A stretch of DNA of 64,000 nt from Bacteroidales bacterium (lineage in GTDB: Bacteria > Bacteroidota > Bacteroidia > Bacteroidales > UBA3824), in assembly GCA_045628165.1 (NCBI GenBank), contig JAZQPB010000228.1:368-64367 (forward strand), written 5' to 3'. The position numbers were made by a program, and so were the translations under genes. Below the pieces are notes generated by a model, which did no database searches, was not told the origin of the DNA, and worked only from the letters and a program-made list of their open reading frames with translations. Shown one piece after another: positions 264-62,341 of the stretch (within the stretch, counting starts at the first letter, position 1; each line of letters starts with the position of its first letter).

Positions 264-2258
264 CTACAACTGAATAGTAATCATCTGGAATGAGTAAGGC
301 TCCAACTTAACAGTCATCTGCTTAGCGGCCTTGAAGTCCTCTACCTTAGGAGTTACTGGCTGAGCGTCGTAGTTGTTCTCCATAAAAGGCTGACCCTGAA
401 GCTTTGTGATCTTGGCGTTTGGCTTTACATTGAACTTGCTGAGGTTAACCTTGGCATTTACAGCCTCTGGTGTTGCGTTGGCCATTTTCACGTAGAGAGT
501 CTTGGTCTTGGTGTTGAGAACAACAGAAGAACCTGTAAACTTGGCGTCGCCGTTCTCGATTGTAACGAGCTTGTCATAGAAGTACTGACCTGACGACTGA
601 CCGAACATCTGCTGTACATAGTAGCTGCAGGTGAGGTATGTCTTGTTGTCGTCGAAGTAGATGAGGTCTGGATCCCAGTTGGTGTTGTCTCTGCGGGCAA
701 AGAGTGGTGCGTATGATGTCATTACAACAACATCGGCATTGCGCTCCACGTGCATGAGGTAGAGAGCCTCGCCAAGGGCAGAAACCCACTTCTTATTGTT
801 GGCAGGATCCTGTGTGGCGTACTCACCGAGGTAAACCTTGGTCTTGCGGTTGCGTGGGTACTTGTCGTACTGACGTGAGAAGTAGAAGTAGTCCTTCTTC
901 TCGTAATAGTGCTCGTCGATGATTGGGAGACCAATCTCGTTGGCGAGTTTCCAGCCAGCCTCGTAGTCAGGATTGCCTGGGTGAGAGCCTGGACCTGCGG
1001 TACCTACAATCACGATCTCTGGGTGAGCCTTTGTGATGCGGTCGTACATATACTTGAATCTCTCTACGAACTCTGGAGAGATCTTCTCCTCGTTGCCGAT
1101 ACCGAGATACTTGAGACCGAATGGCTTAGGATGACCCTGCTCGGCACGGATCTTACCCCACTTGGTGTTTTCGTCGCCGTTGGCCCACTCAATGAGGTCG
1201 AGAGCGTCCTGAGTCCACTTCTCGATATCCTTCATATCGCAAACGTCCTGAGCCTGGTCTGGCCACATATTCCAACCGCCGTTGGTACCCTGGCAGCTAA
1301 CACCACAAGGAAGGATTGGCAATGGAGCCATCTTCATATCCTCGCAGAGCTGGAAATACTCGTAGTATCCAATAGCCATCGACTGGTGGTAACCCCATGT
1401 GTTTTTCTGCTGACGACGTGTCTCCTTAGGTCCGATAGTCTCCTTCCACATGTATGTGTTCCAGAAACCCTCGCCACCGCCGTGAACCACGCATCCGCCA
1501 GGGAAACGGAGGAACTTAGGATTGAGAGCCTCGAGAGCCTCGGCGAGATCCTTGCGGATTCCGTGGCCGTGGTATGTATCCTGAGGCATCAGAGAGATCA
1601 TATCAACATCGAAATCACCGACAGTCTCTGAGAGTACCTGGAGTTCTGCGTTCTGGCAATCCTCAGAAGCTGTGAGAGTGCACTCGTATTTCTTCCAGTC
1701 GTTGGTATTTACAGTGAAAATGCCCTCAGCGAGTACCTTTGGCTGCTTGCCCCAGCCCTGTGGCTGAACGATAGCAACACGGATCTTCTTGGCGTCGCCT
1801 GCCACATTGCGGGCAAAGAGAGAGAAGTCGTACTTGGCGCCATTCTTTACGCTCATGCCGTTGAATCCGGCGTTCTGGAGACCGTAACCTGGCTTGCCGT
1901 CAAACCATTTCTCACCGAAATCGCGTGTACGCTCCACGTGGAGACGCATATAGTTGGGATTGTTTGGGTGGATAGGATTCTGCTGCATTACAGAAACCAA
2001 TCCGAGGGCGTGACCTGGACGTGCCACCTTCCAGCAAGTACCTGCGCCCCAGCCGTCGCGCTCGCTCAGGTTGTACTCGAAAGAGCCGTTCTGTACGAGG
2101 TCTGCATTAAGTCCGCCATCAGCTGACATAGAAATATCCTCGAAGAAGATACCGATAAGCTCATCGCTGATAGCCTTGCCACCTGATGGAGGAGCCATCT
2201 GAGCGAAAACCGAAGTGCCTGCCAAGAGAGCGGCACTAAGCATAATTGTCTTTTTCAT
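264..2258 (-). CDS. Secreted alpha-L-arabinofuranosidase, GH51-like
   Basis: 664 aa with signal peptide MKKTIMLSAALLAGTSVFAQ. N-terminal NGSFE carbohydrate-binding-like module, LGIGNEE (acid/base-type GNE motif) and YLGEYA (nucleophile-type motif). Confidence 0.8.
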   Translation of the reverse strand: MKKTIMLSAALLAGTSVFAQMAPPSGGKAISDELIGIFFEDISMSADGGLNADLVQNGSFEYNLSERDGWGAGTCWKVARPGHALGLVSVMQQNPIHPNNPNYMRLHVERTRDFGEKWFDGKPGYGLQNAGFNGMSVKNGAKYDFSLFARNVAGDAKKIRVAIVQPQGWGKQPKVLAEGIFTVNTNDWKKYECTLTASEDCQNAELQVLSETVGDFDVDMISLMPQDTYHGHGIRKDLAEALEALNPKFLRFPGGCVVHGGGEGFWNTYMWKETIGPKETRRQQKNTWGYHQSMAIGYYEYFQLCEDMKMAPLPILPCGVSCQGTNGGWNMWPDQAQDVCDMKDIEKWTQDALDLIEWANGDENTKWGKIRAEQGHPKPFGLKYLGIGNEEKISPEFVERFKYMYDRITKAHPEIVIVGTAGPGSHPGNPDYEAGWKLANEIGLPIIDEHYYEKKDYFYFSRQYDKYPRNRKTKVYLGEYATQDPANNKKWVSALGEALYLMHVERNADVVVMTSYAPLFARRDNTNWDPDLIYFDDNKTYLTCSYYVQQMFGQSSGQYFYDKLVTIENGDAKFTGSSVVLNTKTKTLYVKMANATPEAVNAKVNLSKFNVKPNAKITKLQGQPFMENNYDAQPVTPKVEDFKAAKQMTVKLEPYSFQMITIQL

Positions 2259-2293
2259 TTAATAAGTGTTATTAATTAATAGTGTTAACTCTA

Positions 2294-2301
2294 CAAAGAT
2301 A
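2294..2301 (-). promoter_or_regulatory. Bacteroidetes -7 box TATCTTTG (TAnnTTTG) upstream of the arabinofuranosidase gene
   Basis: The plus strand reads caaagata, ~36 nt upstream of the ATG at 2258. Confidence 0.45.
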
Positions 2302-2334
2302 AGAACTATTTTCAAAATTAAAAAATTTTTAAAC

Positions 2335-2378
2335 CACAAAAAAAAATCCGAAGCCCTGCAAGTCCAGAACTTCGGATT
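2335..2378 (-). terminator. Rho-independent terminator of the 146-aa/133-aa gene pair
   Basis: Stem atccgaag (2346-2353) pairs with cttcggat (2370-2377), followed on the minus strand by a long T-run. Confidence 0.65.
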
Positions 2379-2505
2379 AATTATTGATAAGAGAGAATAG
2401 CGAGTATAATTACTCAAAATCCTTGTCAGTGAAAGTAAAGCGTATTGAAGTGGAATCATGCTGCTTGATTACTCTCCAATTCTGAGTGCAGTAAGGTGAA
2501 TGAAA

Positions 2506-5924: not shown

Positions 5925-5958
5925 TTATATGATTAAAAATTAAAAATTAACAATTGAC

Positions 5959-7460: not shown

Positions 7461-8642
7461 TTATAAATAATTTACAAACTCACCGATATTCATTACCTTG
7501 GCTGTAAAAGTATTCTTTCCTTGATTATTGAGTTGCTCTGTATTATCAATATCCAACTCCTTACTACTGTCAAAATGCAACACAGCATAATACGGAGCAT
7601 GTTGAGCATCAAATCCTTTTGAATTTAATTCATCGGCAGTCCAAATCTGGAAAGTTGATTTTGTGAGTTTATATAAATGATGCTCATTATTATTGTGGAG
7701 CAAAACATATTTCAACCGATCGAAACCAGGTTTTACAAGCAATGAACCTTTCGATTCGCCAGCCCTCAAATAGCAAATGCCTTTCTCAATCATCAGCCTC
7801 ATCGTTTCGGGACGAGCATAGTTTACCATAACAGTACTTTCTGTATTGTTGTCCTTTATCCTGCGAAGCATTTCTACCCTACGCTCTTCGTTTTCAATAT
7901 CATTTCTACGACGAATACTCAGGTCGTAGAATTCCTGTTCTCGCTCTATTCCAACGAAATTTCTGCCTAACAAATTAGCTGCAATTCCTGTTGTACTGCT
8001 GCCTGAAAACGGGTCCAAAACAAAATCACCTGCATCAGTTGAGGCAAGAATAATCCTATACAGCAATCGCAAAGGCTTTTGAGTTGGATGCTTTCCACAA
8101 GTTTTTTCCCATTGTCCAACCGCAGGAAGTTTCCAAACATCTGTCATTTGTTTGTCGCCGTTCAAGAATCTCATTGTCCCATAATTGAATTTATGAGTTT
8201 TCTTTTCTGATTTTCTCGCCCAAATGATAAACTCTGTTGAAAAGTTGAAATATTTGCACGACAAATTTGGCGGAGGGTCAGATTTCTGCCAAGTGATAAC
8301 ATTCAGTATCTTGTAGCCCAATTCTGTAAGACAACTGGCTACTGCAAAAATATTATGGTAAGTTCCGCTAATCCAGATAGTTCCGTTTTCTTTCAGTTTG
8401 CCGCGGCAAAGCGAAAGCCATTTCATATTGAACTCATGGATATATTCAGGCGTACCACCTTTGTCCCAGTCGCCTTTATCAACGCATACTTGTTTACCAC
8501 TTTGCACACTGATTCCTCCGTTACTTAAAAAGTACGGCGGATCGGCGAAGATAGTTTGGAAACTATTGTCAGGCAAACTGGCAATAATTTCCATGCTATC
8601 ACCGAGGTGAAGGGCGAAGTTAGGGAAAGTGGTAGTGGACAC
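7461..8642 (-). CDS. Beta-class N6-adenine/N4-cytosine DNA methyltransferase (DpnA / M.MboIC-like second methylase) with an extra ~130-aa C-terminal domain
   Basis: Motif IV IFADPPY lies near the N-terminus and motif I LDPFSGSSTTGIAA lies downstream (beta-class order). The start abuts the stop of the REase gene. Confidence 0.85.
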   Translation of the reverse strand: MSTTTFPNFALHLGDSMEIIASLPDNSFQTIFADPPYFLSNGGISVQSGKQVCVDKGDWDKGGTPEYIHEFNMKWLSLCRGKLKENGTIWISGTYHNIFAVASCLTELGYKILNVITWQKSDPPPNLSCKYFNFSTEFIIWARKSEKKTHKFNYGTMRFLNGDKQMTDVWKLPAVGQWEKTCGKHPTQKPLRLLYRIILASTDAGDFVLDPFSGSSTTGIAANLLGRNFVGIEREQEFYDLSIRRRNDIENEERRVEMLRRIKDNNTESTVMVNYARPETMRLMIEKGICYLRAGESKGSLLVKPGFDRLKYVLLHNNNEHHLYKLTKSTFQIWTADELNSKGFDAQHAPYYAVLHFDSSKELDIDNTEQLNNQGKNTFTAKVMNIGEFVNYL

Positions 8643-9476
8643 TTATTTTATCTCGTTAATAAATTCTTTTACATTAGTCAAATTATATACCCTCGGTATA
8701 ATGTTGTATGCCTCTTGAAGTTTATTCTTTGCACCACGCCAGCCTATGCCGTCAGTTATCCATACAAATTCAAAACCTTCAACGCTGTTTATCTTTGGAG
8801 AAAGTTCTGAGTATGAACGTGCAACTTCGTTGAGTTTACTTCCGCCTGCGGTATAAAAGTTTACTTCAATGAGGTAAACTTTTTGGGCAGTTTCGATTAC
8901 AAAGTCGAATCGTTTTTCGTCCTCGCCTAAAACAGCATTTAAGGTTGGCCATTCTCTTGAATATACTTCTTGACGGAATTTAATGCCGTTTTCAGTAAGC
9001 AACTTTGCAACTGAGTTTTCCATCACATGTCCGCCTCGGTTTTTGCGAGCATTAGTGTCAAGGCCGGTTTCTATACCGAAAACATAATCAACCAAATCCT
9101 TTATCTTGCGTTCTCTGAACAAATCACCAAGTCCAGTACTTTCGACGAACTCAATTACTCCGTCAATACTATTGAACAGAGATTTTAGTTCAATGCACTG
9201 ATTCAATGAATTGAGAACCATTTTCTTGCCTTCGTCTCTTACGGCAATTAGAATCGGCATTACAGAGAAAGCCGACTTATCTCTGTTCCAAATTGTCTCA
9301 ACTGACTTTCTCAAATCAGTTGTTCCTATCAGACTATTAAGAATACAAAGACTTAATTTTATATCGTCAACGTTATTGCCTATCTTCTCAAAATCGCAGA
9401 AGAAATCAAGCGTCTGATTGGTTTCCTGCAATTGAGAGATAAATTCGTTGAATTGTTCTGTTGTATGTGCTGGCAT
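8643..9476 (-). CDS. Type II restriction endonuclease, DpnII/MboI family (predicted GATC)
   Basis: 277 aa. The N-terminus QTLDFFCDFEKIGNNV matches what I recall of DpnII-family openers. It sits between two methylase genes, as in the MboI operon. Confidence 0.7.
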   Translation of the reverse strand: MPAHTTEQFNEFISQLQETNQTLDFFCDFEKIGNNVDDIKLSLCILNSLIGTTDLRKSVETIWNRDKSAFSVMPILIAVRDEGKKMVLNSLNQCIELKSLFNSIDGVIEFVESTGLGDLFRERKIKDLVDYVFGIETGLDTNARKNRGGHVMENSVAKLLTENGIKFRQEVYSREWPTLNAVLGEDEKRFDFVIETAQKVYLIEVNFYTAGGSKLNEVARSYSELSPKINSVEGFEFVWITDGIGWRGAKNKLQEAYNIIPRVYNLTNVKEFINEIK

Positions 9477-9492
9477 TGTCGTATTATTTTTA

Positions 9493-9642
9493 GATTCTTC
9501 GCTTCGCTCAGAATGACATCGTAGATTGTGTGTGTTAGGGAGTTAGTCGGAGGAAGGAACCGGCGGAGCCGGTTCCTTCCTCCGACTAACTCCCCCACTC
9601 TGACAAACCTAACTGTCATTCTGAGCGAAGCGAAGAATCTCT
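9493..9642. repeat. Nested perfect palindrome occupying the methylase-endonuclease spacer
   Basis: The outer 27-bp stem agattcttcgcttcgctcagaatgaca (9493-9519) pairs with 9616-9642. The inner 26-bp stem gggagttagtcggaggaaggaaccgg (9539-9564) pairs with 9570-9595 around the 5-nt loop cggag. Confidence 0.85.
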
Positions 9643-9643
9643 A

Positions 9644-10540
9644 TTACAATATGTTACTTACCATTATTTCTGTCAACTTTCCACGTTTACTGGCATTTGC
9701 GTTTACCATTCTTGTGGCAATTACTCTATCGATTCTGAATTCGGAATACAAATCATCAAAGAAATTATCCTCTGGATTTTTACCCTTTAAATCAGAATTT
9801 GAGAGAATAAATTTTGCATTCGCGGCATCCAATTTTTTACAGAATTCCGCCAATCGGACTTGCTCGCTGTCATTGAATGCCTCTTTTGCATACGAGTTGA
9901 AACTTGAAGTTTCACTCAAAGGCTTATATGGAGGATCTATGTAAAACACTGAATTCTCACCTGCATATTTAAATGTTTCCTCAAAATCTCCATTCAGGAT
10001 TTCCACCTTTTGCAAAACCTTGCTATCAGCTAATATTGTTTCAGGGTCGCATATTTTTGGATTTGCATATCTTCCAAATGGAACATTATACAACCCCTTG
10101 CTGTTAACCCGATACAAACCATTGAAACAAGTTCTATTTATAAAAATGAACAAGGCTGAATTTTCGATATTATCCAAGGCTTTTGTATTGAATCTATCAC
10201 GCTTCGACAAGTAATAATCTTTACGTTTGTCATCATCGAGTGGAATGTATTCGTCTTGAATATTTTGCAGATAATCAATTAATTTCGAAGGATTGTCTTT
10301 AATAGTCTTGTAAACTATTGTCAAATCAGAATTTATATCATTGATAATCGCCTTTTCGATATTGTCATATTTTTGAAGGATATGCCAAAGCACAGCACCT
10401 CCACCCACGAATGGCTCAACGTAGGTAATGCTTTTAGTAGAAAAATCTTGTGGCAAGCGAGCCTCAACTTGCTCGATAAGTTGAGATTTTCCACCCACCC
10501 ATTTTACGAAAGGTTTTGCTTGTATATCTGATTTCGCCAT
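9644..10540 (-). CDS. Dam-family (alpha-class) N6-adenine DNA methyltransferase, DpnM / M.MboIA-like
   Basis: 298 aa. KPFVKWVGGKSQLI (motif I region), EPFVGGGAV, and FYIDPPYKP (motif IV). Confidence 0.88.
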   Translation of the reverse strand: MAKSDIQAKPFVKWVGGKSQLIEQVEARLPQDFSTKSITYVEPFVGGGAVLWHILQKYDNIEKAIINDINSDLTIVYKTIKDNPSKLIDYLQNIQDEYIPLDDDKRKDYYLSKRDRFNTKALDNIENSALFIFINRTCFNGLYRVNSKGLYNVPFGRYANPKICDPETILADSKVLQKVEILNGDFEETFKYAGENSVFYIDPPYKPLSETSSFNSYAKEAFNDSEQVRLAEFCKKLDAANAKFILSNSDLKGKNPEDNFFDDLYSEFRIDRVIATRMVNANASKRGKLTEIMVSNIL

Positions 10541-11034
10541 TTTTCTTTTAAAATGGCATAGAGCGGCACTTAATGTTTAGAAGGGTTCGGCAAAACCGCG
10601 ACGGCAATAAGCACCCAACTCTACACCTTATTTTTTTATAATGTGTAGAATTACAGTTGCTTATCATCCCGTCTGATTAAATTTTGCCGATTTATCTAAA
10701 GAGGATAATAACCTAAATTCTCAATGATTGTTTATTGTGATGACATAAAAAAAGCGCAAGCATCTGATAGAATGTTCACGCTGACTTGCGGTCCACCACG
10801 ACCTTATCCCCAACAGAACAACAGATACTCACGCGATATTGAAATACACATCCAAAGATATGCAAGAGGACCAAGCCTCCCGCATACCAAGGATGATGGT
10901 ATATCATACTCGTAAGCACCATGTTTGCTTGTTTGTGTAGGGATATTGAAAAGTGGTGGTTTCAAGTCAACATAAACAAAGCTTCAATGACGCTTTTAAA
11001 TATGTGTTTGTCATTGCTATTCGCAACGACTTTG

Positions 11035-11065
11035 CAAAGATATGAAAATGAAAATTCAGATCAAA
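11035..11065 (-). promoter_or_regulatory. Well-formed Bacteroidetes promoter (TTTG-N19-TATCTTTG) reading into the 0.5-kb non-coding spacer toward the RM operon
   Basis: On the plus strand, caaagata is at 11035-11042 and caaa at 11062-11065, with a 19-nt spacer. Confidence 0.5.
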
Positions 11066-11076
11066 ATATTTTCAAA

Positions 11077-11271
11077 TTAAATCGCCTCTTCTCTACAATT
11101 CACCTCTATCCTATTCCCGCTTACCATATAATAAACATCTGACTGTCTGCAACCTAATACTTCATAAACAAGCACGTCGAAATCATTGGAATACTTCTCA
11201 AAAGTTTCCGCTGAAAGGTTGAGGATTTCGATTTTTCCTGTGGAATAGTCGATGATTGCTAATTGTGGCAT
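11077..11271 (-). CDS. Small hypothetical protein (64 aa), third gene of the ATPase/DUF4435 operon
   Basis: Its ATG overlaps the upstream stop codon as TAATG (11269-11273), indicating translational coupling. The composition looks like a globular protein. No family recognised. Confidence 0.5.
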   Translation of the reverse strand: MPQLAIIDYSTGKIEILNLSAETFEKYSNDFDVLVYEVLGCRQSDVYYMVSGNRIEVNCREEAI

Positions 11272-12269
11272 TATCCCAAAATTCTATCTATCTGTTTGTT
11301 AATCTTATCCGCACCAGAAGTTCCTATATTGCAATCCGCAGCATGCAAAAGATTGTCTATCTGCTGGTCAAGTTTTATTTTGCCAGACATGAGAGTGGCT
11401 TCCTTGTATTGAACCTCACGGTCTTTTTTTCGGGAGAGTGTGTCGTCGCTTTCGTAAATCTTTTGGATCTCCTTGTGTCGTATGCTGTTGGCCATAGCCT
11501 CTAATGTACGTTTTACGAAACTGAAAACATCATGACCTCTATACAGCAAATAGTATTCGCTATCGGAGAATCCCATTTCCGAAAGTTTGTTTTCTATTTT
11601 GTTGAGACCTTCCACATTGCCTGCAATAAGAGCCTCACAAGATTTGTATTCGTCAACTATGGCTGTCTGGGTATTGACACTGATTGAGCCATCCAAATTC
11701 AGTTTAAGTTTTCCAATGAGAGAATTGAACTTCTGAATTGAATACTGGCTGTTGACATCCCAGCCGAAAAACAATGACAGCAGAAACAGCTTCGACAATG
11801 CCTTGGATATTTGGGCGAGAATGCTCTCGAAATCTATATTGGCATCACTTGACAACACCAACTGATTCAACACATTGCCTATTTTGGAAGAATGGCAAAA
11901 ATGATTCTCTATGGAATGGTAATATGTGGTAAGGATATAATTGCAAGCCTTGATTCTTGCGGAATACTTGCTTTCGATTATCTCGTCGAAATCGCTGTCA
12001 ACGCAAACAATCAGATTCTTACCCAAATGAGAGTCATTAATATGATCAAGGATTGCGCCCTTGCCGGGAGTTTCCTTTCCGTTGATATTGTATGGCGATA
12101 TCCTGAAATCGTATTTGGAATTGTATTTCGACAGGAAAGATTTCCAAAACTGAACATCCAGATAATCCTCCACCCAAACCTGCACAATCTCCCTTTTGCC
12201 CTTAGAGTTAAGTGCGTTTGTGCTCTCGAAGAAAACGGAACTAATTGAATCAATAAGACTTGTAGCCAT
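11271..12269 (-). CDS. DUF4435-like Toprim-domain protein (AriB-like putative nuclease)
   Basis: 332 aa. VQVWVEDYLDVQFW (Toprim Glu), LIVCVDSDFDEI (DxD), and TTYYHSIENHF (the conserved ...iEN motif of DUF4435). Confidence 0.65.
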   Translation of the reverse strand: MATSLIDSISSVFFESTNALNSKGKREIVQVWVEDYLDVQFWKSFLSKYNSKYDFRISPYNINGKETPGKGAILDHINDSHLGKNLIVCVDSDFDEIIESKYSARIKACNYILTTYYHSIENHFCHSSKIGNVLNQLVLSSDANIDFESILAQISKALSKLFLLSLFFGWDVNSQYSIQKFNSLIGKLKLNLDGSISVNTQTAIVDEYKSCEALIAGNVEGLNKIENKLSEMGFSDSEYYLLYRGHDVFSFVKRTLEAMANSIRHKEIQKIYESDDTLSRKKDREVQYKEATLMSGKIKLDQQIDNLLHAADCNIGTSGADKINKQIDRILG

Positions 12270-12275
12270 ATCCCA

Positions 12276-18494: not shown

Positions 18495-18498
18495 CACA

Positions 18499-37082: not shown

Positions 37083-37288
37083 GAAATAATTTTTGTTTCT
37101 ACACATAAAATTTTACATTTTTCTAATATTTTTCATAAAATATTTTCACATCAGCTGATACTCAACCAATTACACACGCAGAAAATATTTTATGGGACTA
37201 TTGTCAGCTGATAAGTTTCAAAAAACATGCCTTTTTTATAAATGCATGCGCTTGCGGCGTTTTTTTTTGCTAATACCGATTTATCTAT

Positions 37289-38140: not shown

Positions 38141-38228
38141 CGCGGCACACCTATTAATAAGGTATCAGCTGCGGGAAAATGGCATTTAAATTGCTATGTT
38201 TCAGAAAACAATATAAACAAATCGCAAA

Positions 38229-46940: not shown

Positions 46941-46942
46941 TT

Positions 46943-49359: not shown

Positions 49360-51384
49360 TTACTTAACCACAGCATCCCATGTGCCGTTGGCGAAATCGG
49401 CGGTGATAATGTATGTGCCGCCTGCTGGATCAATCCACTGGCTGTAGCTGTCGCCAAAGGCTCTTGGCTCAGATGCTATCAGAACCGAGCGGTTGATAGG
49501 ATCGCTCTGACTCTTCCATGCGTCGTCGCAGCCGTAGACAATCTGATTGCCATCCTGCTCCACCACAAAGTAGAAGTTCCAATCGGCAGGGCTAAACTCG
49601 CCCACGTAAACGCCGTCCTGAAGTGTGAGTGTAACATTGAGGTCGTTGCCGGACTTGTCGAAAAGCTTTACCTCGGCAAACGATACAGGAGTAGCCGACC
49701 AAACGCCGTTCAATGCGTCGAAGGTCACGATATATGAGCCTGCGGCAAATGTGGTACCGTCGGCACCCTCAAACCAGAAGTTGTCGGCATTATCGTAGGC
49801 GAAGCCGTCCTTCTTCCAGCCGTCAGAACCCCAAGGAGTATCGTTTGCGTCCTTTATCATGAAATTGTAATAATCAGACTTGGTGGTTACCGAGCCCTGA
49901 TAGATACCGGTAGGATTGCCGTTGGCATCGAGCTTTGCTGGGAATGTGGCCACAATGATAGAGTTGTCGTCCTTGTCGAGCATAGAGAGCGATGATGAGA
50001 GGAGCGCAGCTGATATGCTTTCAGCTGAAACATCCGCTCTGATGGCGTATGTACCGGCCTTAGGGGCATCAGCTGAAAGGTATTCCTTGCCGTCGTCGCC
50101 CTTCAGGATGATTTTTCCGGCAGCTGATACGGTTATCAGACCCTTGCATTTGCCAGTGGCGGCGCCTTCCTGCAAATCTACCGTGAGATCTGCCTCATCG
50201 GAACCACACACGGCCTTCATGCCCTTTGGGAATACAGGAGCTGACGACGATTCGATTGTGTATGTGAGCTTCTCGGGATTGTTGAGGTCGATTACGATCT
50301 TGTAGCTGCCGGCCTTGCCGAGAGTGAACGCAGCATCGGTACCTATCTCGAGAGTGCCGTCAGCCTTGGCACCCAGCTTGAAAGTGCCTGGTGTTGGTGA
50401 GCCATCGCCGCCGCTCTTGGTGTAAATGTTCGACTCGCCGCTTACAGTGAACTTGGCATCGTCCTTGGCGCTCTCCACAAATGCCACAAACTGAGTCTTG
50501 GCGGCATTGAAAGAGAATTCAGCTGAAACGTCGCCATAGGCCTTCAGGCTCTGGATGTGCTCGTAAGTTACGGTGATGTCCTCGGCCTTCTTGGTATCCA
50601 CGGTTACGTATGTGCATCCGCTGGCTCCGAAAGTCCAGAAGTTGATGTTGTTGCCTCCGGCTGTAATCTCCTCATACTGAGAAGTTGTGTAGAACGCGCC
50701 GGTAGAGTATGCCCAGTTTACGGTCTCGTTGCCCACGTAGCGGAACTGACCATCGCGGCCATTCCAGTGAGCCCAGTCGCTGGCAAACGGCAGGAATCCC
50801 TTGTAAATCATGTCTTCGCCGGCCGAGAAGAGTGTGTCGGTGGTCTTGGAATCCACAAGGTTGATGAGCAGGTAATGCATATCGATGTAGATTGGGTTCA
50901 CATTTACAGAAACGATGTTGCTGTAAGTGCCCTCAATAACCGAAGTCTCGTTGAACTTGTGATTGACTCTCAGATACATAGTATTCATCTTGCCGGCATC
51001 GAGACCGAGATTCTTGGCTATGATGCTGAGATCGAGTTTCGAGAGCGTGATGGAATTGCCATCGGCGCTTATCTCCATGGTGTGTGCGGAGCTGAAGGCC
51101 TGGTCAGCTGATGCCTCAAGCAGGTAGAGACCCTTGCCCATGTTGTGGGCAGCCGATGGATCGCCGTTCAATACCAGGGCGCCGTCGGTGGTGTAGGTCA
51201 GGATTATGCCTGCCTGGTCGAGGTTGTTCTCGTTGCAGATGATGTCGTTGCCCTGGCTCGAAATCTCGGAGGCCGATGGATAACCCACCTGAAACATTTC
51301 CTTGTCGTCGTCGCAGGCTGTAAGAGTAAGGCCAGCTGATAGCGCCAACGCCATAGCGGCTGTGTATATCTTTGACTTGTTCAT
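49360..51384 (-). CDS. SusE/SusF-like surface glycan-binding lipoprotein
   Basis: 674 aa. Lipobox LSAGLTLTACDDD. Beta-rich repetitive Ig/CBM-like sequence. Position immediately downstream of susD. Confidence 0.65.
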   Translation of the reverse strand: MNKSKIYTAAMALALSAGLTLTACDDDKEMFQVGYPSASEISSQGNDIICNENNLDQAGIILTYTTDGALVLNGDPSAAHNMGKGLYLLEASADQAFSSAHTMEISADGNSITLSKLDLSIIAKNLGLDAGKMNTMYLRVNHKFNETSVIEGTYSNIVSVNVNPIYIDMHYLLINLVDSKTTDTLFSAGEDMIYKGFLPFASDWAHWNGRDGQFRYVGNETVNWAYSTGAFYTTSQYEEITAGGNNINFWTFGASGCTYVTVDTKKAEDITVTYEHIQSLKAYGDVSAEFSFNAAKTQFVAFVESAKDDAKFTVSGESNIYTKSGGDGSPTPGTFKLGAKADGTLEIGTDAAFTLGKAGSYKIVIDLNNPEKLTYTIESSSAPVFPKGMKAVCGSDEADLTVDLQEGAATGKCKGLITVSAAGKIILKGDDGKEYLSADAPKAGTYAIRADVSAESISAALLSSSLSMLDKDDNSIIVATFPAKLDANGNPTGIYQGSVTTKSDYYNFMIKDANDTPWGSDGWKKDGFAYDNADNFWFEGADGTTFAAGSYIVTFDALNGVWSATPVSFAEVKLFDKSGNDLNVTLTLQDGVYVGEFSPADWNFYFVVEQDGNQIVYGCDDAWKSQSDPINRSVLIASEPRAFGDSYSQWIDPAGGTYIITADFANGTWDAVVK

Positions 51385-51416: not shown

Positions 51417-52940
51417 TTAGTAGCCCTCGTTCTGGGTGAGGTTTGCGTTGGCGGAGAGCTCGTGGGCCGGTATAGGGAACACATTGCGGAAGGCCTCAAA
51501 ATTCTTGCCATCAGCTGCACCGCCCTTAAACTCCCAGTTGTAATTGACATCGCCGCCGTATTTGTTGAAACGTACGAGGTCGGTGCGGCGGAGCATCTCG
51601 AAAGCCAGCTCGCGAGCGCGCTCATCAAGGATGAAATCCTCGTCCACGCTCTCCACGGCCAACGCTCCCGCTCTCTGGCGGATCTCGTTTATGAGCTTGA
51701 CGGCCTCGGCGGAATTTCCGTTGCGGAACTGAGCCTCGGCCTCGTTGAGAATCACCTCGGCGTAGCGGATTACAGGAAGATCGGTGGCGCAGCCGTTGTC
51801 GGTGTTGCCCTCAAAATATACAGGCTTGCCGTCGTCGGTAAGGTTGGTGAACTTCAGGCTGATATAGCCCTGATCCTTGTCGTCCTCGGTGGTCACGTAC
51901 TGAGCCTGGCCGTCGGTGTAGAAGAAAGTATTGCGGATATCGCCGGTCTCATTGAAGAGAGCCGAGAAGTGGCCGTTTACACGCATGTTGCTCCAGCCGG
52001 AAGAGATGCCGAGCTGGTCGTTGTTCTCGCCGCCGTTTTTGCCGAAACCGCAGATGAGGTTGGTGGCTCCGGCCCATGATCGGGCGTTCTCGGCGTCGGA
52101 TGCCAGGGCAAAGATTATCTCCTTGCCGGGGCCCGCATAGTTGTGGTTATCAGCTCCAAAAATATTGTGGTATGTGGCTGTGGGTTCCAGCTGATAGCCA
52201 AGAGATTTTACCTTCTGTGCAGCTGATATGCACTTTTCGTAATCATTGCTGCCGTTGTAGACCTCTGAGTTGAGGTAGATTCTGGAAAGCAGAGCGTATG
52301 CCGCGCCCTGGCTTGCACGTGGATAAGCCACTGTGGCCGACATCTCCGGCGCTATGGCCTCGAGCTCGGAAGTGATGTATGTGTAGAGTTCCTTGCGCGA
52401 TGCGGTTGGGATGTTGGTCTCGCCGATGGCGACGGTCTCGGTGGGCAGCACGCCCTTGCCGTAGATATCCATGATGTAATAGAGCGAGAGAGCTCTCAGA
52501 AAACGGGCCTCGAGGGCTATCTGCCTGATGGCGGGATCATCTTTGCCGGCCGCGTTTTTCAGGAGGTCGTTGCACGAGGTAACCACCACGTAGCATCTGT
52601 ACCAGACGTACTCGCACCATACATCCGATGCGTTCCAGGTGTTGTATGTGAGAGGTCCCAGCTGGTCGCCGGAGAGCCATGTGTAGGCTATGGCGTCGGT
52701 GGTGCCTTCCTGGAGATTGAAGATGGAGCGGATAAGTGGCTCGTTCTTGCCTGACATGTTGAGGTTGGCCACATTGTATGAGTACGATGCGTAGCAGGCC
52801 GCCATCACCGACTCGAAACCCTGCACCGACGAGTAAACCTTGTCGGAAGAGTCGTCGATGGTGGGATACTGGTCGAGGCCGTCGCAGGAGGCCATGGTGA
52901 GTGTAAGGCCCAACGCTGCTATATATAATGATTTTTTCAT
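51417..52940 (-). CDS. RagB/SusD-family nutrient-binding outer membrane lipoprotein
   Basis: 507 aa. Lipobox LTLTMASCD. RFLRALSLYYIMDIYG and PVIRYAEVILNEAEA SusD signatures. Confidence 0.9.
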   Translation of the reverse strand: MKKSLYIAALGLTLTMASCDGLDQYPTIDDSSDKVYSSVQGFESVMAACYASYSYNVANLNMSGKNEPLIRSIFNLQEGTTDAIAYTWLSGDQLGPLTYNTWNASDVWCEYVWYRCYVVVTSCNDLLKNAAGKDDPAIRQIALEARFLRALSLYYIMDIYGKGVLPTETVAIGETNIPTASRKELYTYITSELEAIAPEMSATVAYPRASQGAAYALLSRIYLNSEVYNGSNDYEKCISAAQKVKSLGYQLEPTATYHNIFGADNHNYAGPGKEIIFALASDAENARSWAGATNLICGFGKNGGENNDQLGISSGWSNMRVNGHFSALFNETGDIRNTFFYTDGQAQYVTTEDDKDQGYISLKFTNLTDDGKPVYFEGNTDNGCATDLPVIRYAEVILNEAEAQFRNGNSAEAVKLINEIRQRAGALAVESVDEDFILDERARELAFEMLRRTDLVRFNKYGGDVNYNWEFKGGAADGKNFEAFRNVFPIPAHELSANANLTQNEGY

Positions 52941-52975: not shown

Positions 52976-55957
52976 TTAGAACTGGAATCCCAGCGAGAGC
53001 GAGAATGTTCTTGGACGTGGGTAGAATGAGTTGTCGACACCGTTGCCTATCTCGGGGTCCACACCGTTGTACTTGGTGAGGGTAAACACATTCTGAACAT
53101 TTAATGTGGCGTTCAGCGAGAAGATGTCGGCAATCTTTCCGAAATTGTAGCTCAGGCTGATGTTGTCCATCTTGAGGAACGACGCATTGTGGAGATAATA
53201 GTCGCTCTGATACTGGCGGTGCTTGAATCTTGTGGCCAGGTACGATGACGACATATTGTTTATCTGGCCGTCGTTCCACTGCAATACATCCTCGATGCCG
53301 CCCATCTGAGCCGCGATACCGTTGTATACGTAGTTGCCAAGATTTGCGCGGAGCGATGTGCTGAGGGTGAATTTCTTGTAGCGGAGCGAGAGCGAGTAGC
53401 CCAGCATCAGGTCGGGAGCAGGCGAATGGCAGTAATACTTGTCGGCGTCGTTGATGATGCCGTCGTTGTTTGCATCCACGTAGGCACCCTCTATAGGGTT
53501 TCCGTTCAGGTCGTAGATCTGGTGATAGAGCCAGAACGAGTATGGCGACTGACCCTCGGTGAGAGTCTGGAACTGGCTGCCCTCTATGCCGGGACCTGCA
53601 GGATTGTTGACCACCTCGCCGCCGTCGTTGATGGAGAGGTTGGTGATCTCGTTCTTCTCCCAAGTGGCGTTCAGCGACATATCGAGACCCCAGTCAGCTG
53701 TATTGAGAACATTGCAGTTTACGGAGAACTCCAGACCCTCGCTGTCCACATTGCCCACGTTGGTGAGGATAGAGCTTGAGAAGTTGCTGCCCGCAGCTGC
53801 AGGCACTGTGGCGAGAAGGTTCTCGGTGGTGCGTGAGTAGTATTCGATGCTGCCCGAAACCTTATCCTTCAGGATACCGAAATCAAGGCCGATGTTCCAT
53901 GCCTTGGTAGATTCCCACTTGAGATTCTCCACGTATGGCGATGTGTAGTAGATAGGAATCCAGTTGCCGTTCCAGAGATAGTAAGCTGCCGAATTGGGCT
54001 GAGAGAGTGTGTAAGTGGCCAGATAGTTGTAGTTGCCGATGCCGTCCTGCTGACCTGTAACACCGTATGATGCGCGGAGCTTCAAGTTGTTAACTACGTC
54101 AGACAATTCGCTCATGAAGTCCTCGTCGCTTATACGCCAGGCCAGGGCAACTGATGGGAATGTACCCCAGCGCTCGTCCTTGGAGAATCGTGAAGTACCG
54201 TCGCGGCGTACAGTGGCGGTAAGCATGTACTTGCCCATGAATGTGGCATTGGCGCGTCCGTAATATGACATGAGCACGTGGGTCTGGTCCTTGGGAGATG
54301 ACGATCCCATTACTGCGCCCTCGGTGGTATAATACTCGAAGTATGGAGCGTTGCTGTTCCAGTACTGATAATCGTAACCGGCTGTAACATCAAAGTTTAC
54401 AATATCGAATTTCTTTGTATAGTTAAGATAACCGGTGAAGAGCTTGTTGCTGTTCTTCTCAGGTCCGTAAGAATAGTCGCGGCCCTTCTCGTTGTAATTG
54501 AGCATGGCATCAGCTGGAATAAAAACCGAGCCCTCGCCCTTTGCGAAATCGAGACCGCCGGTCACATGGGCCTTCAGGTCCTTGCAGAATGGGAATGTGT
54601 AGTCTACGTCGAGGTTTGTGATAAGACGCTGAACTGTAGACCTGTTGTCCTGATACTCAAGAAGTCCCACAGGATTCTTGACCGAACCGGTGATAGGCAT
54701 AGGTGTGCCGTTCACCATGTTGTAAGCCTCGGTGTAGCCCATGAAGAGATCATCGTTGCCTGAATATACAGGGATTGTAGGGTTGTAGACAGAGGCGTTG
54801 TAGATGGCGCCGTAGTCGGCAAAACGGTTCTTGTTCATAGACGCCTTCAGGCTGAGGTTCACCTTGAGATCGTCGTTGAGGAATGTAGGATTCAGGTTCA
54901 GGTTTCCTGTGTAGCGCTGTGTGTTGTCGTTGAGCAGGATACCGTCCTGAGCCATGTAGCCGATGGAGGCGCGTACGGGAAGCACCTTGGCCACTGTACC
55001 CGAAACGGAGAGATTGTTGTCGGAGCCGAAAGCTGGACGGAAAATCTCGTCGTTCCAGTCGGTATTGGCATTACCGAGAAACTGGATGTATTTCTGCTCG
55101 CCGGTGCCCTTCACCACGTCGATAAACTCGTCGCGGGATAGCATATCAGCTGTCTTGGTCTTCAGGGCCATGGAGTTGGTGGTGTTGAAAGTAATCTTCA
55201 CCTTGTCCTTGCCGCCCTTCTTGGTGGTGATGATGATAACACCATTAGATGCGCGCGAACCGTAGATGGCGGTAGACGACGCATCCTTCAATACTGTCAT
55301 GCTCTCGATATCAGCTGGGTTGATGAGCGCGAGGAAGTTGTCGCTGTTGCCGGAGATACCGCCGTTTTCCAAAGGAACGCCGTCGAGCACGATGAGAGGA
55401 TTGTTGGAGGCGTTGAGCGAAGCACCGCCGCGGATCTTGATGGTGGAGCCAGCTGATGGCGAACCGCCGTTGCTCATAATCTGGACGCCGGCCACCTTGC
55501 CGTTGATGAGCTGCTCGGGCGAGCTTACCACACCGCCGTTGAAGTCCTTCTCAGATACGCTGGAGATAGAGCCGGTGAGGTCGCCCTTGCGGCGTGTACC
55601 GTATCCGATGGCCACCACCTCGCCGAGCTCGGTAACGGCCGGACGCATGGTAACGTTGAGTGTATTGCCGGAAGGTACTGGAATGGTCAAGCTCTCGTAT
55701 CCAATGAAAGAAAACATGAGCTCGTGGGAATCACCCCCGCCAAGATTGAGAGTATAAGCACCGTCGAAATCGGTAATGGTACCATTGGTAGTACCTTTAA
55801 GTACAACGGTGGCACCCGGAATAGGCTGACCTGTCTCGTCGCTTACCACGCCAGAAACCGTCTTCTGGGCAAACGACAAGGACGAGAGACCCAGAAATGT
55901 CACGATAAGCAGCATTTTGGCTACTATGTAACGGATGTTCAATGTCTTTGAGTCCAT
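52976..55957 (-). CDS. SusC/RagA-family TonB-dependent outer membrane transporter
   Basis: 993 aa. CarboxypepD_reg-like VSGVVSDETGQPIPGATVVLKGT, plug IESMTVLKDASSTAIYGSRASNGVIIITTKKG, and a C-terminal beta-barrel ending F. Confidence 0.93.
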   Translation of the reverse strand: MDSKTLNIRYIVAKMLLIVTFLGLSSLSFAQKTVSGVVSDETGQPIPGATVVLKGTTNGTITDFDGAYTLNLGGGDSHELMFSFIGYESLTIPVPSGNTLNVTMRPAVTELGEVVAIGYGTRRKGDLTGSISSVSEKDFNGGVVSSPEQLINGKVAGVQIMSNGGSPSAGSTIKIRGGASLNASNNPLIVLDGVPLENGGISGNSDNFLALINPADIESMTVLKDASSTAIYGSRASNGVIIITTKKGGKDKVKITFNTTNSMALKTKTADMLSRDEFIDVVKGTGEQKYIQFLGNANTDWNDEIFRPAFGSDNNLSVSGTVAKVLPVRASIGYMAQDGILLNDNTQRYTGNLNLNPTFLNDDLKVNLSLKASMNKNRFADYGAIYNASVYNPTIPVYSGNDDLFMGYTEAYNMVNGTPMPITGSVKNPVGLLEYQDNRSTVQRLITNLDVDYTFPFCKDLKAHVTGGLDFAKGEGSVFIPADAMLNYNEKGRDYSYGPEKNSNKLFTGYLNYTKKFDIVNFDVTAGYDYQYWNSNAPYFEYYTTEGAVMGSSSPKDQTHVLMSYYGRANATFMGKYMLTATVRRDGTSRFSKDERWGTFPSVALAWRISDEDFMSELSDVVNNLKLRASYGVTGQQDGIGNYNYLATYTLSQPNSAAYYLWNGNWIPIYYTSPYVENLKWESTKAWNIGLDFGILKDKVSGSIEYYSRTTENLLATVPAAAGSNFSSSILTNVGNVDSEGLEFSVNCNVLNTADWGLDMSLNATWEKNEITNLSINDGGEVVNNPAGPGIEGSQFQTLTEGQSPYSFWLYHQIYDLNGNPIEGAYVDANNDGIINDADKYYCHSPAPDLMLGYSLSLRYKKFTLSTSLRANLGNYVYNGIAAQMGGIEDVLQWNDGQINNMSSSYLATRFKHRQYQSDYYLHNASFLKMDNISLSYNFGKIADIFSLNATLNVQNVFTLTKYNGVDPEIGNGVDNSFYPRPRTFSLSLGFQF

Positions 55958-56194: not shown

Positions 56195-57004
56195 TTACAA
56201 ATCGATATGCGAGCTGTGTACCTCGCGGCCTATAAACAGGGAGGCGCAACTGTTGAAAACGTCGGGGTTGTCGGTGGTGAAATATCGGGTGGTTGAATTT
56301 TTGGAAAGACGGCTGTCCATCTCCGGATGACGGCGCAGATAGTCGATAAGGCTCTGTGCCACAATCTCGTTTTGAGGGATAAAGGATACTCCCTGCGGAC
56401 ACGCTCTCCTGAAAGAGTTGATGAGCAGCGGATAATGTGTGCAGCCGAGTATCACGGCGTCGATATCAGGAGACTGCGCCATCAGCTGGCCAAGGTATTT
56501 GGATACAAAATAATCTGTGCCGGGATTATCCACCTCGCCGTTTTCCACAAGGGCGGCAAGCATGGGGCAGGCCTGCTGATAGACATTGATGCCGGGATAC
56601 AGTTTCTGAATCTCAAGGATATAGCTCCGGGAGTTTACGGTGCCCATGGTGCCGAGCACACCTATATTATTGGTATGCGTGTATTGCTGGATAACCTCGG
56701 CGGTGGGCCTTATGATGCCGAGCACGCGGTTCTGTGGATTTATGGAGGGAAGGTCGTTTTGCTGGATGGACCTCAGTGCCTTGGCCGATGCGGTATTGCA
56801 CGCCAGAATCACGAGAGGACACCCAAAAGAAAAGAGACGGCGCACCGCCTGCAATGTGTAGGCGTACACCGTCTCGAAGCTTCTTGAACCGTAAGGAGCC
56901 CTCGCATTGTCGCCCAGGAAAACATAATCGTATTCCGGCAGCAATTCCTGAAACTTGCGGAGTATTGTAAGTCCGCCAAATCCCGAATCGAAGACCCCTA
57001 TCAT
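56195..57004 (-). CDS. murI: Glutamate racemase
   Basis: 269 aa. IGVFDSGFGGLT, VILACNTASA and ILGCTHYPLL. Confidence 0.92.
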   Translation of the reverse strand: MIGVFDSGFGGLTILRKFQELLPEYDYVFLGDNARAPYGSRSFETVYAYTLQAVRRLFSFGCPLVILACNTASAKALRSIQQNDLPSINPQNRVLGIIRPTAEVIQQYTHTNNIGVLGTMGTVNSRSYILEIQKLYPGINVYQQACPMLAALVENGEVDNPGTDYFVSKYLGQLMAQSPDIDAVILGCTHYPLLINSFRRACPQGVSFIPQNEIVAQSLIDYLRRHPEMDSRLSKNSTTRYFTTDNPDVFNSCASLFIGREVHSSHIDL

Positions 57005-60712: not shown

Positions 60713-60760
60713 TTAAATTCGTTTTTTTCTGATAAGATATTGTTAAAAAGTTACAAAGCG

Positions 60761-60768
60761 CAAAGTTA
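60761..60768 (-). promoter_or_regulatory. -7 box TAACTTTG upstream of bamA
   Basis: The plus strand reads caaagtta, ~49 nt upstream of the ATG at 60712. Confidence 0.4.
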
Positions 60769-60783
60769 TAAAAAAAATCTTAA

Positions 60784-61527
60784 TTACTTACTAATTTGCT
60801 GCGAAGTTTTGCCAAATCTTCGCTCCCTGCGCTGAAAATCCACAATAGCCTCATAAAACTGCTCCGCGCCGAAATCCGGCCAGAGCGTATCGGTGAAATA
60901 CAGCTCCGAATACGAGATCTGCCAGAGCAGGAAATTTGAAATCCTCTGCTCGCCGCTTGTGCGTATCAGCAGCTCGGGATCAGGCATTCCGGCGGTATAC
61001 AGGCAATCGGCAAAATCCTTCTCGGCCAGCGAGCTGATATCGAACGGAGACTCGCTGTACCTCTCCAGCAGGCGCTTGGCGGCATTAAGCATCTCATAGC
61101 GGCTGCCGTAGCTCAGGGCTATCACCACGGTAATGCCCGTATTAGCAGCCGACTTGGCGCACGCCGATTCTATCTCTGCCCTCACATCGGGAGGCAGCAT
61201 GGCATTGTCGCCTATAGTTACAAGGCGCATATTGTATGCGGCGAGATCGGCCAGCTGAGCCGCCACCGTTCTGGCCAACAGCGACATCAGGCCATTAACC
61301 TCGCTCTCGGGCCTCTGCCAGTTCTCAATAGAGAAAGCGTAGAGGGTAATGTACTTAACTCCGATTTTCTGAGCGGCATCCACAATCTCACGGGCCCTGT
61401 TGGCGCCCATGGCATGACCTTCCAGACGGTCCTTGCCGAGCCTCTTGGCCCAGCGTCCGTTGCCGTCCATTATCACAGCCACATGCTGTGGCACCCGGTC
61501 CTTATCTATCAGATCTATCGATGACAT
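60784..61527 (-). CDS. uppS: Isoprenyl transferase (undecaprenyl diphosphate synthase)
   Basis: 247 aa. HVAVIMDGNGRWA, YAFSIENWQRP, RTSGEQRISNFLLWQ. Confidence 0.93.
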   Translation of the reverse strand: MSSIDLIDKDRVPQHVAVIMDGNGRWAKRLGKDRLEGHAMGANRAREIVDAAQKIGVKYITLYAFSIENWQRPESEVNGLMSLLARTVAAQLADLAAYNMRLVTIGDNAMLPPDVRAEIESACAKSAANTGITVVIALSYGSRYEMLNAAKRLLERYSESPFDISSLAEKDFADCLYTAGMPDPELLIRTSGEQRISNFLLWQISYSELYFTDTLWPDFGAEQFYEAIVDFQRRERRFGKTSQQISK

Positions 61528-61597
61528 AAGTCTGTGTATATATGTGTGTTATTATGTTCTATTATCATATCAGCTGAAACCCCATCAGCTGGCAGGC

Positions 61598-62341
61598 TCA
61601 CTGCCTGTAAGCCTGGCACTTGCCGCCCTTGCCCGATCCCATCCTGAACGAGAGCTGAACCCCGAGAAAGGAGTACCAGTCGTCGGTGCCGGCAAAAGAC
61701 CTCTGCTTGGCCGCGCCCTCGCCAAACGACATATCGTAATAATCCACGCCGATATTATCGAGCAGGTCGGAGAACAGCTTGCGGAATTTCCACTCCACCG
61801 ACAGAGTTACCACATCATTGGGGCAGTACCTGACTCCCGCGCCAAACGGAATGCAGAACCTGAGTCCCTCCGAGGGGAACGACGCAACCGCCAGCCCCGG
61901 GCCTCCGGCTATGTACGGCGAAAAACTGTGCCTGTCGTCGCCCGGTATCAGGGGCAGGAAATATATCTCGCCCTGCAGCGACATATCCACGAGCTCGTTG
62001 CAGAAACTGGCGCCCCTGGCCTTCTGCACCGGACTGTCGGAATCGGCATCGCTGCCCTGCAGCTTGCACCACATGGTCTGGAACGACACCGAGAGCCTGC
62101 TGCTGAACACGTGCCTCAGGCTGAAACCAAGCGCCGGCCTGGGATTGTACAGCACCTTGTCGGGATTAATCTCGCCGTAATACATGCCCACGCCGGCCAT
62201 CAGGCCCACCTCCTCGTGCTGGGAGGTCTGGCAGTAGGAGTCGGCGGCTGATACAGTAATTACGGCCAGCAATACAGTTGCAAAGATATAGGAAACTATC
62301 GGTTTCTGTGCTTTAAAAAATCTTAATTTTGCGTCCATCAT
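61598..62341 (-). CDS. Outer-membrane beta-barrel protein, DUF6089-like
   Basis: 247 aa. Signal sequence and alternating beta-strand pattern. Conserved position upstream of uppS-bamA in Bacteroidota. Confidence 0.6.
   Translation of the reverse strand: MMDAKLRFFKAQKPIVSYIFATVLLAVITVSAADSYCQTSQHEEVGLMAGVGMYYGEINPDKVLYNPRPALGFSLRHVFSSRLSVSFQTMWCKLQGSDADSDSPVQKARGASFCNELVDMSLQGEIYFLPLIPGDDRHSFSPYIAGGPGLAVASFPSEGLRFCIPFGAGVRYCPNDVVTLSVEWKFRKLFSDLLDNIGVDYYDMSFGEGAAKQRSFAGTDDWYSFLGVQLSFRMGSGKGGKCQAYRQ

Follow-up and report, generated by a model that had tools for sequence, protein, structure and literature searches.

A 64-kb stretch of the genome of an uncultured Bacteroidales lineage represented by metagenome-assembled genomes (MAGs), called the window here (contig JAZQPB010000228.1, positions 368 to 64,367; all window counts below are limited to this stretch), is densely marked with an oriented 8/9-base word, (Y)ATCAGCTG. 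The word has been written in at the DNA level, by selection or drive, and not at the protein level, and it is close to saturating the positions that are compatible with it. A hyper-abundant word of this sort has not previously been reported in Bacteroidota in the literature searched. Genes for SusC/SusD, for BamA and for components of type IX secretion lie in the window.

By exact count, ATCAGCTG is present in 54 copies, 32 on the plus strand and 22 on the minus strand, which fall at 47 sites, and its core CAGCTG is present 69 times against 24 expected from an order-2 Markov model. The same model predicts 3.4 copies of the 8-mer, and 100 dinucleotide-preserving shuffles gave 2.9 +/- 1.6 copies with a maximum of 6. 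No other 8-mer of the window is more over-represented, and in native DNA the density reaches about one copy per kb. A sequence-only reading of this DNA, made earlier, had arrived by hand at roughly 69 CAGCTG sites, about 47 of them extended, and at seven copies of the 10-mer palindrome ATCAGCTGAT (14232, 19705, 19735, 19765, 20084, 37150 and 49001). Both totals and all seven positions agree with the exact count, and the Markov comparison that it had proposed as a check shows the excess to be real. It was also right that one-step variants are frequent, although its example coordinates were off by a few bases: ATTAGCTG/CAGCTAAT has 12 copies against 1.2 expected and ATCAGCTA/TAGCTGAT has five against 1.4. 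The commonest one-step variants, called the best tolerated, are TTCAGCTG (16), ATCAGCAG (14) and ATTAGCTG (12), and variants altered in the central AGC are rare.

What the earlier reading had taken for the over-represented unit, namely the palindrome, is ruled out by these counts. The 10-mer is found seven times where its two 8-mer halves predict 9-10 (32 x 22/69), and CAGCTG lacking an AT flank on either side is found at 22 sites, when the chance level for all CAGCTG is 20-29. Given that the 10-mer is no commoner than its halves predict and that bare CAGCTG stands at chance, the enriched unit is the oriented ATCAGCTG, extended by a pyrimidine. Full palindromes do not exceed the prediction from independent half-site flanks in the window or in a sister species described below. 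Position -1 is T in 30 copies, C in 21, A in three and G in none; G at this position would create GATC, which is avoided in host DNA (observed/expected 0.40). Positions -3 and -4 are slightly G/C-rich, position +9 is seldom T, and further out no conservation is seen.

Inside genes, the excess was measured against a null in which synonymous codons were shuffled within genes, keeping the proteins and the per-gene codon usage. This null yields 8.4 +/- 2.5 copies in genes, compared with 50 observed. The split by frame and strand, made on a corrected gene set in which 48 of the 54 copies are intragenic, gives 19 copies against 0.33 expected for the context xxA TCA GCT G, 13 against 0.66 for xCA GCT GAT, six against 1.7 for xAT CAG CTG and 10 against 4.8 for CAG CTG ATx. 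All four permissible frame/strand classes are thus enriched, and the two remaining classes are empty, one because it has an in-frame TGA and the other because it needs Ile-Ser followed by Cys, Trp or stop. The class xxA TCA GCT G draws on rare codons (CTA 3%, TCA 13%, GCT 18%). Compatible peptide positions are filled to a large extent: 49% of x-Ser-Ala-[VADEG], 44% of [SPTA]-Ala-Asp, 75% of [NHY]-Gln-Leu and 83% of Gln-Leu-[IM] positions carry ATCAGCTG, while none of the five Asp-Gln-Leu positions, where the word would make GATC, is used. TCAGCT encodes 23% of the Ser-Ala pairs of the window, more than any other coding does, against 12% in the sister species and 0-1% in more distant relatives. 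A control word, CGACAAGG, is confined to one frame and one strand, as expected from codon context. The synonymous shuffles, overall and per frame, together with this single-frame control rule out a codon or dipeptide artefact. The argument made before, that selection acts on the DNA word rather than on the protein, is therefore upheld by the enrichment of every permissible class, the use of rare codons and the filling of 44-83% of compatible positions.

Relatives of the host were read as short loci from NCBI MAG contigs and from Logan assemblies of several sequencing runs, and are given locus numbers (L001 and so on) where they need to be told apart. They are likewise uncultured Bacteroidales MAGs, the named sources being horse, goat, sheep, yak and deer gut or rumen; an exact-sequence look-up of the window BamA found no record. 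Their word content is as follows.

L018 (NCBI MAG contig), 92% nucleotide identity to the window: the same word, seven copies in 3 kb; additional gains and a single loss
Sister species (Logan assemblies), 83% nucleotide identity, BamA 87% amino-acid identity: TCAGCTGA at 19 sites in 39.6 kb
L001 and L002 species, BamA 74-76% amino-acid identity: without the words of the window and the sister; AGCATCAG enriched
L037 (BamA 78% amino-acid identity) and L042 (TPR protein 63% amino-acid identity): none of these words
L038, 84-89% nucleotide identity: none of these words
Lower-GC relatives, BamA 68-72% amino-acid identity: none of these words

The word therefore comes in dialects. The window and L018 use YATCAGCTG, whereas the sister species prefers DTCAGCTGA, with G, A or T instead of A at position -1, and its top word TCAGCTGA is a true palindrome. 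The flank preferences of the window and the sister differ with p = 4e-5 at position -1 and p = 1.5e-4 at position -2. In L001 and L002, AGCATCAG is enriched in several frames and on both strands, with z of 8-10 over the codon null. A further candidate dialect, AGCTTCAG in L037, L001 and L002, is not claimed; it lies mostly in one frame and on one strand with z of only 4-6, and so probably reflects codon context.

Turnover of individual sites is fast, and site gain continues in both the window and the sister lineage. Between the two, 6 of 17 aligned 8-mer sites are conserved, compared with 0.31 for all 8-mers (the power of this comparison is low), and CAGCTG is conserved at 10 of 26 sites compared with 0.40, so that individual sites appear to be under no extra constraint. 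Sequence around the sites is conserved marginally below average (0.76 against 0.80, p = 0.048). Lineage-specific sites lie two or three substitutions, including transversions, away from the sequence of the other species, as in the gains TCG GCC GAC to TCA GCT GAT and ACC GCC GAC to ACA GCT GAT, and some gains change the protein, for example EKLM to HQLM. Such a pattern points to a strong directional process that is still under way and acts on the word as a whole. Strains of the sister species are 99.7-99.99% identical, too similar for their polymorphism to inform. Scans of viral contigs for clustered copies returned only tandem repeats in unrelated viruses that lack the CTAG avoidance of the host, and no phage of the host lineage was found in them. 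In one NCBI MAG, contigs of unequal identity to the window stand together (L038, JAZUEG010000089.1, 84-89%; L018, 91%; L015, 94%), and their word content differs, with no copy in 7.4 kb of L038 and seven in 3 kb of L018; the mismatch reflects either chimeric binning or the import of a segment from a lineage that lacks the word.

Within the window, 48 of the 54 copies (89%) are intragenic, in line with the earlier statement that they lie mostly inside genes, and with 91% of the window coding there is no preference for intergenic DNA. The two strands carry 32 and 22 copies, sense and antisense orientations number 25 and 23, and the orientations are interleaved across the whole window. The word occupies five intergenic sites, and at none of them does it lie in a terminator-like stem. 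Copies do cluster at short range, with 12 gaps below 70 bp (15-63 bp) against 2.8 expected, although three of the 12 stem from a 30-bp tandem repeat that lies in frame within lpxK; pairs of neighbouring copies are of mixed orientation. The strand and spacing analysis that had been suggested, carried out on the window only, thus gives no skew and a clustering at 15-63 bp. As the flanks outside -4 to +9 hold little information, ATCAGCTG is not a repeat element, and these flanks and the intragenic share set aside a dispersed repeat of the repetitive extragenic palindrome (REP) or miniature inverted-repeat transposable element (MITE) type; the copies are dispersed through native DNA, as the earlier reading had held, and are not confined to a few repeats. 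The sites are listed below, each entry being a copy of ATCAGCTG unless the 10-mer ATCAGCTGAT is named.

2118..2125, plus strand: glycosidase-like gene, read S-A-D; the only copy in the first 13.4 kb
13984..13991, plus strand: TPR gene, xxA TCA GCT G
14142..14149, minus strand (CAGCTGAT on the plus strand): TPR gene
14173..14180, plus strand: TPR gene
14232..14241, both strands: 10-mer ATCAGCTGAT, TPR gene; non-synonymous EKLM to HQLM relative to relatives
15844..15851, plus strand: TPR gene; also in the sister species
18307..18314, minus strand: menaquinone-biosynthesis gene
19705..19714, both strands: 10-mer, lpxK, unit 1 of the 30-bp tandem repeat
19735..19744, both strands: 10-mer, lpxK, unit 2 of the 30-bp tandem repeat
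19765..19774, both strands: 10-mer, lpxK, unit 3 of the 30-bp tandem repeat
19796..19803, plus strand: lpxK; the sister has GTCAGCTGA there
20084..20093, both strands: 10-mer, lpxK, N-Q-L-I
23508..23515, minus strand: hypothetical gene
24926..24933, minus strand: TPR_19 gene
25280..25287, minus strand: TPR_19 gene
25340..25347, minus strand: TPR_19 gene
25458..25465, plus strand: TPR_19 gene
29056..29063, plus strand: ABC transporter gene
33047..33054, plus strand: PAS/phosphatase sensor gene
36284..36291, plus strand: PAS sensor gene
37150..37159, both strands: 10-mer, divergent intergenic region between the sensor gene and a cheR-like gene; outside any terminator stem
37205..37212, minus strand: intergenic; 53 bp from the 37150 copy
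38164..38171, plus strand: intergenic
38374..38381, plus strand: PKD/CHU_C gene
38591..38598, plus strand: PKD/CHU_C gene
40587..40594, plus strand: gene with a type IX secretion system tail
44090..44097, plus strand: extracytoplasmic function (ECF) sigma factor gene
44147..44154, plus strand: ECF sigma factor gene
44959..44966, plus strand: glycosyltransferase gene
49001..49010, both strands: 10-mer, dprA; conserved in the sister species
50007..50014, minus strand: SusE/DUF5111 gene; window-specific
50068..50075, plus strand: DUF5111 gene; the sister codes the same S-A-D as TCG GCC GAC
50121..50128, minus strand: DUF5111 gene; window-specific
51105..51112, minus strand: DUF5111 gene; also in the sister
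51333..51340, minus strand: DUF5111 gene; window-specific
51510..51517, plus strand: SusD gene
52188..52195, minus strand: SusD gene; also in the sister
52220..52227, minus strand: SusD gene; window-specific
54509..54516, plus strand: SusC gene; window-specific, with an E-to-D change
55145..55152, plus strand: SusC gene; ACC GCC GAC in the sister, ACA GCT GAT here, three substitutions
55310..55317, plus strand: SusC gene; window-specific
55450..55457, minus strand: SusC gene; window-specific
56481..56488, plus strand: racemase gene; common to the sister and L037, lost in L018
58689..58696, plus strand: bamA; common to the sister and L018
58813..58820, minus strand: bamA; common to L018, not in the sister
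61569..61576, plus strand: intergenic, between uppS and a DUF6089 gene
61584..61591, plus strand: intergenic; 15 bp from the 61569 copy

The intergenic pair that had been placed at 37150 and 37204 is real; its second member, at 37204, reads GTCAGCTGAT, and the word in it is listed at 37205..37212. The in-frame 30-bp tandem repeat of lpxK spans 19695-19803 on the minus strand in about three units, each with a 10-mer and coding the peptide xISADxK; it is specific to the window lineage, and the sister holds an unrelated 48-bp stretch at the same place.

The first 13.4 kb hold a single copy, as had been noted, at 2118-2125 and not at 2128. Part of the word-free stretch is an inserted defence island, entered here as one feature.

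7461..13292, minus strand: word-free defence island, comprising a DpnII-type GATC restriction-modification cassette and a DUF4435/AAA_15 pair; G+C content at third codon positions 0.33-0.47

The cassette consists of a D12 methylase, a DpnII endonuclease and an N6_N4 methylase. Over its 5.9 kb the island has no copy of the word, and none of its five compatible peptide positions is used. Three relatives (L038, L039 and L042) do not have it, and in them mltG directly adjoins the TPR gene; at the same junction L041 carries a different restriction-modification island, of the methylase/PD-(D/E)XK kind (L041 3106-6915). The mltG/TPR junction is a hot spot at which GATC-type restriction-modification islands insert. 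Among the native genes to the left, ilvB and ilvN have no peptide able to carry the word, and mltG has two such positions and uses neither. A comparable gap in the word AGCATCAG of the L001 species covers the leftmost ~7 kb of L041, with ilvB, mltG and L041's own restriction-modification island. The gap in the window therefore follows from the inserted island together with genes that lack compatible peptides. The absence of the word from the first 13 kb and from what had been called an AT-rich island stands, the latter being a strain-specific insertion, but no special cause is needed, and its absence from ilvBN, which the sequence-only reading had singled out along with mltG, loses its significance in view of their peptide content. 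A CAGCTG-type methylase was not found in the window, whose DNA methylases are those of the GATC cassette.

Sequence-specific self-recognition in DNA exchange is, to our knowledge, firmly known in two proteobacterial families only and suspected for the highly iterated palindrome HIP1 of cyanobacteria. We tentatively favour the reading, while stopping short of calling it probable, that (Y)ATCAGCTG may be a lineage-specific self-recognition word spread by recombination-coupled drive, as is proposed for DNA uptake sequences (DUS) and uptake signal sequences (USS), and for HIP1. A sequence-specific DNA-binding component of DNA exchange would recognise the word, this candidate acting either when DNA of the own species is taken up or when that DNA is processed or recombined during natural transformation. 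Word-bearing fragments and alleles would then be passed on preferentially, and recombination-coupled molecular drive would spread the word to nearly every position that the protein tolerates. Both the recognition during uptake or recombination and the existence of any receptor are steps that we only infer. We favour self-recognition because it alone predicts the combination of density, symmetry, absence from inserted DNA, dialects, turnover without site conservation and filling of compatible positions. It is possible, though doubtful, that some gut and rumen Bacteroidales use the dialect words YATCAGCTG, DTCAGCTGA and AGCATCAG at the species level to tag DNA as their own when it is taken up or recombined. 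A DNA-uptake-type sequence had already been suggested for the window with dprA as support; the idea fits the anatomy of the word best and is unproven, and dprA, being near-universal, adds nothing to it.

The likeness to DUS of Neisseriaceae and USS of Pasteurellaceae extends to a density of about one per kb, the use of both orientations and of tolerant reading frames, lineage-specific dialects, and depletion from mobile or foreign DNA. Dialects have been described for DUS (PMC3630211), and the build-up of DUS and USS can be explained by uptake bias and recombination (PMC3630211, PMC7371117, PMC3458573, bioRxiv 10.1101/2025.10.24.684340). Natural competence is known in Bacteroidales from P. gingivalis (PMC3268665), and HIP1 enhances transformation (bioRxiv 10.1101/2024.09.10.611283; 10.64898/2026.06.24.733823). 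HIP1 (GCGATCGC) resembles the present word as an octamer with a palindromic core found about once per kilobase or more densely (PMC5861425, PMC4390886), mostly intragenic and in every tolerant frame, missing from foreign DNA and accompanied by enriched one-step variants, and like HIP1 and the alternate HIPs, different words replace each other in some related lineages. However, HIP1 is phylum-wide, whereas two sister species at 83% nucleotide identity already differ in the present word; conservation above background is found for HIP1 sites and not for those of ATCAGCTG, on a sample of 17 sites only; the unit here is an oriented 8/9-mer and not a full palindrome; and a cognate methylase is known for the alternate HIPs and none for ATCAGCTG.

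Several points weigh against self-recognition. The uptake role is proposed from sequence only and for another phylum than those of DUS and USS, for an uncultured host of which about 64 kb was read and in which the window's one competence-type gene is dprA. Saturation of compatible positions appears above that expected for USS. The short-range clustering sets the word apart from DUS and USS and is not predicted by an uptake model. About half of DUS and USS copies lie in terminators, and their inverted pairs nearly always do (cf. bioRxiv 10.1101/2025.10.24.684340), while the copies in the window are concentrated neither in terminators nor in inverted pairs. No report of uptake specificity in any Bacteroidota was found in the literature searched, and searches on the 10-mer, on uptake sequences in Bacteroidetes or Bacteroidales and on CAGCTG methylation motifs in Bacteroid* found nothing relevant.

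Other explanations account for part of these observations. The word might be of the HIP type, with a methylase for CAGCTG or TCAGCTGA, either an orphan or part of a restriction-modification system, and a methylation-dependent, biased mismatch repair that ratchets near-matches towards it, as in Elhai's HIP1 model; for the present word we regard this as unlikely. Although the core is a palindrome of the PvuII/AluI type and the sister's word is truly palindromic, CAGCTG by itself shows no enrichment, an AT flank is required for the excess, and the full palindrome stays at the level of independent halves. Many gains are CAGCCG to CAGCTG, and the outer C-to-T form ATTAGCTG (12 against 1.2 expected) has been called the commonest one-step variant in this connection, two others having the higher counts given above; yet T-variants are not depleted (TAGCTG 26 against 18-26 expected), and gains include transversions and several simultaneous changes. 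Alternative words in related lineages recall the cyanobacterial alternate HIPs with their cognate methylases (PMC4390886, PMC5861425), and strong avoidance of AGCT in some relatives (observed/expected 0.1 in L006) is what an AGCT-specific restriction-modification system would leave; no such enzyme was identified in the family, and the only DNA methylases of the window sit in the word-free island. Since a part in transformation has been proposed for HIP1, the methylase model and self-recognition may not be exclusive, and they would overlap if methylated words also act in transformation. Very-short-patch repair, a driver put forward earlier, is rejected: T-variants are not depleted (besides TAGCTG, CAGTTG has 18 against 24-28 expected, and ATTAGCTG is enriched 10-fold), and repair at a single position cannot explain gains by several substitutions, transversions among them, or why the AT flank is required.

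If the copies were binding sites for an abundant, sequence-specific chromosomal protein that organises, condenses or segregates the nucleoid, and were maintained by selection for a function in cis, this would account for the 12 short gaps, for orientation-independent copies throughout native DNA and, if the binder is dimeric, for the palindromic core; a role in nucleoid structure has been proposed for HIP1 (PMC5861425). We nevertheless find it improbable, because sites are conserved at background between window and sister, about half or more of the opportunities are filled and not a spaced subset, the flank preference differs between sister species, and the word is not in L037, L042 and L038 despite otherwise common synteny and gene content. 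It is very unlikely that the word is a Chi-like signal, one that would modulate a RecBCD/AddAB-type nuclease so that own DNA is repaired and not degraded. Each species has its own over-represented 5-8-mer as Chi site, and related taxa differ in it, as they do in the present words, but about one copy per kb is several-fold denser than known 7-8-mer Chi sites. Chi, the FtsK-orienting polar sequences (KOPS) and architecture-imparting sequences are alike short, species-specific, over-represented oligomers on chromosomal DNA and are strongly skewed to one strand per replichore, whereas ATCAGCTG is much denser and, at 32 against 22 interleaved copies unrelated to gene direction, unskewed (the replication direction of the window is not known); this lack of skew disfavours both, even though HIP1 is said to act Chi-like in transformation (bioRxiv 10.1101/2024.09.10.611283). 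That the word has no function at the DNA level and is a codon or dipeptide by-product, a repeat family or an assembly artefact is hardly credible. Ordinary codon-context words such as CGACAAGG also reach z of about 10 under Markov models, and a single 30-bp tandem repeat supplies three 10-mers out of seven and lies beside another copy of the 8-mer; this account is refuted by the codon shuffles, by enrichment in each of the four frame/strand classes when control words keep to one, by flanks that are uninformative beyond -1 to -4 and +9, and by the same enrichment in independent assemblies (the NCBI MAG contig L018 and the Logan assemblies).

Whatever its function, the strength of the drive is notable: at 44-83% of compatible positions it prevails over codon preference, and some amino acids have changed under it. 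If self-recognition is the true reading, a system like DUS, USS or HIP1 would exist in a third or fourth phylum and would gate gene flow among close gut species, with up to half of the tolerant codon positions rewritten, and transformation-type exchange with species barriers would be suggested in a dominant gut phylum. The words would also provide a simple sequence marker of native versus acquired DNA and for checks of MAG binning, and the change of word between sister species would be ideal for finding the reader protein by comparative genomics.

Some further features of the window and its relatives may be recorded. Several other palindromes are very strongly avoided: CTAG occurs once in 64 kb against ~75 expected, the sole copy overlapping the ilvB stop codon at 4218, and CATATG (0 against 11.7 expected), GTCGAC (1 against 14.5) and TTCGAA (2 against 12) are similarly scarce. 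Avoidance of CTAG, GATC and CATATG is common to nearly all Bacteroidales relatives checked, L017 being the exception, and AGCT is nearly missing from L006 (5 against 47 expected). Coding strands at 13457-17626 and 38000-43000 have a strong excess of A over T (AT skew 0.25-0.39); these stretches correspond to the 1389-aa TPR gene and to a type IX secretion cargo cluster (PKD/CHU_C, PorP/SprF-OmpA, Por_Secre_tail, Peptidase_S74). Tandem arrays of 7 bp occupy intergenic positions 5932-5991, 18498-18562, 20602-20632, 24611-24658, 46942-46974, 47048-47084 and 57004-57099, several of them close upstream of start codons; the racemase gene is preceded by (CTTTAAA) x 13.6 and lptF by (ACTAACT)n. The arrays at 46942-46974 and 47048-47084 are inverse complements of each other, and L018 and L042 have similar heptamer words. 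Words with high counts in two distant relatives proved to be local one-strand arrays, not dispersed words, one with 16 copies of CAGAATGAC in a Chitinophagales MAG (L020 5599-7114) and one a 7-bp tandem array in a Kapaibacterium MAG (L030 17880-17971).

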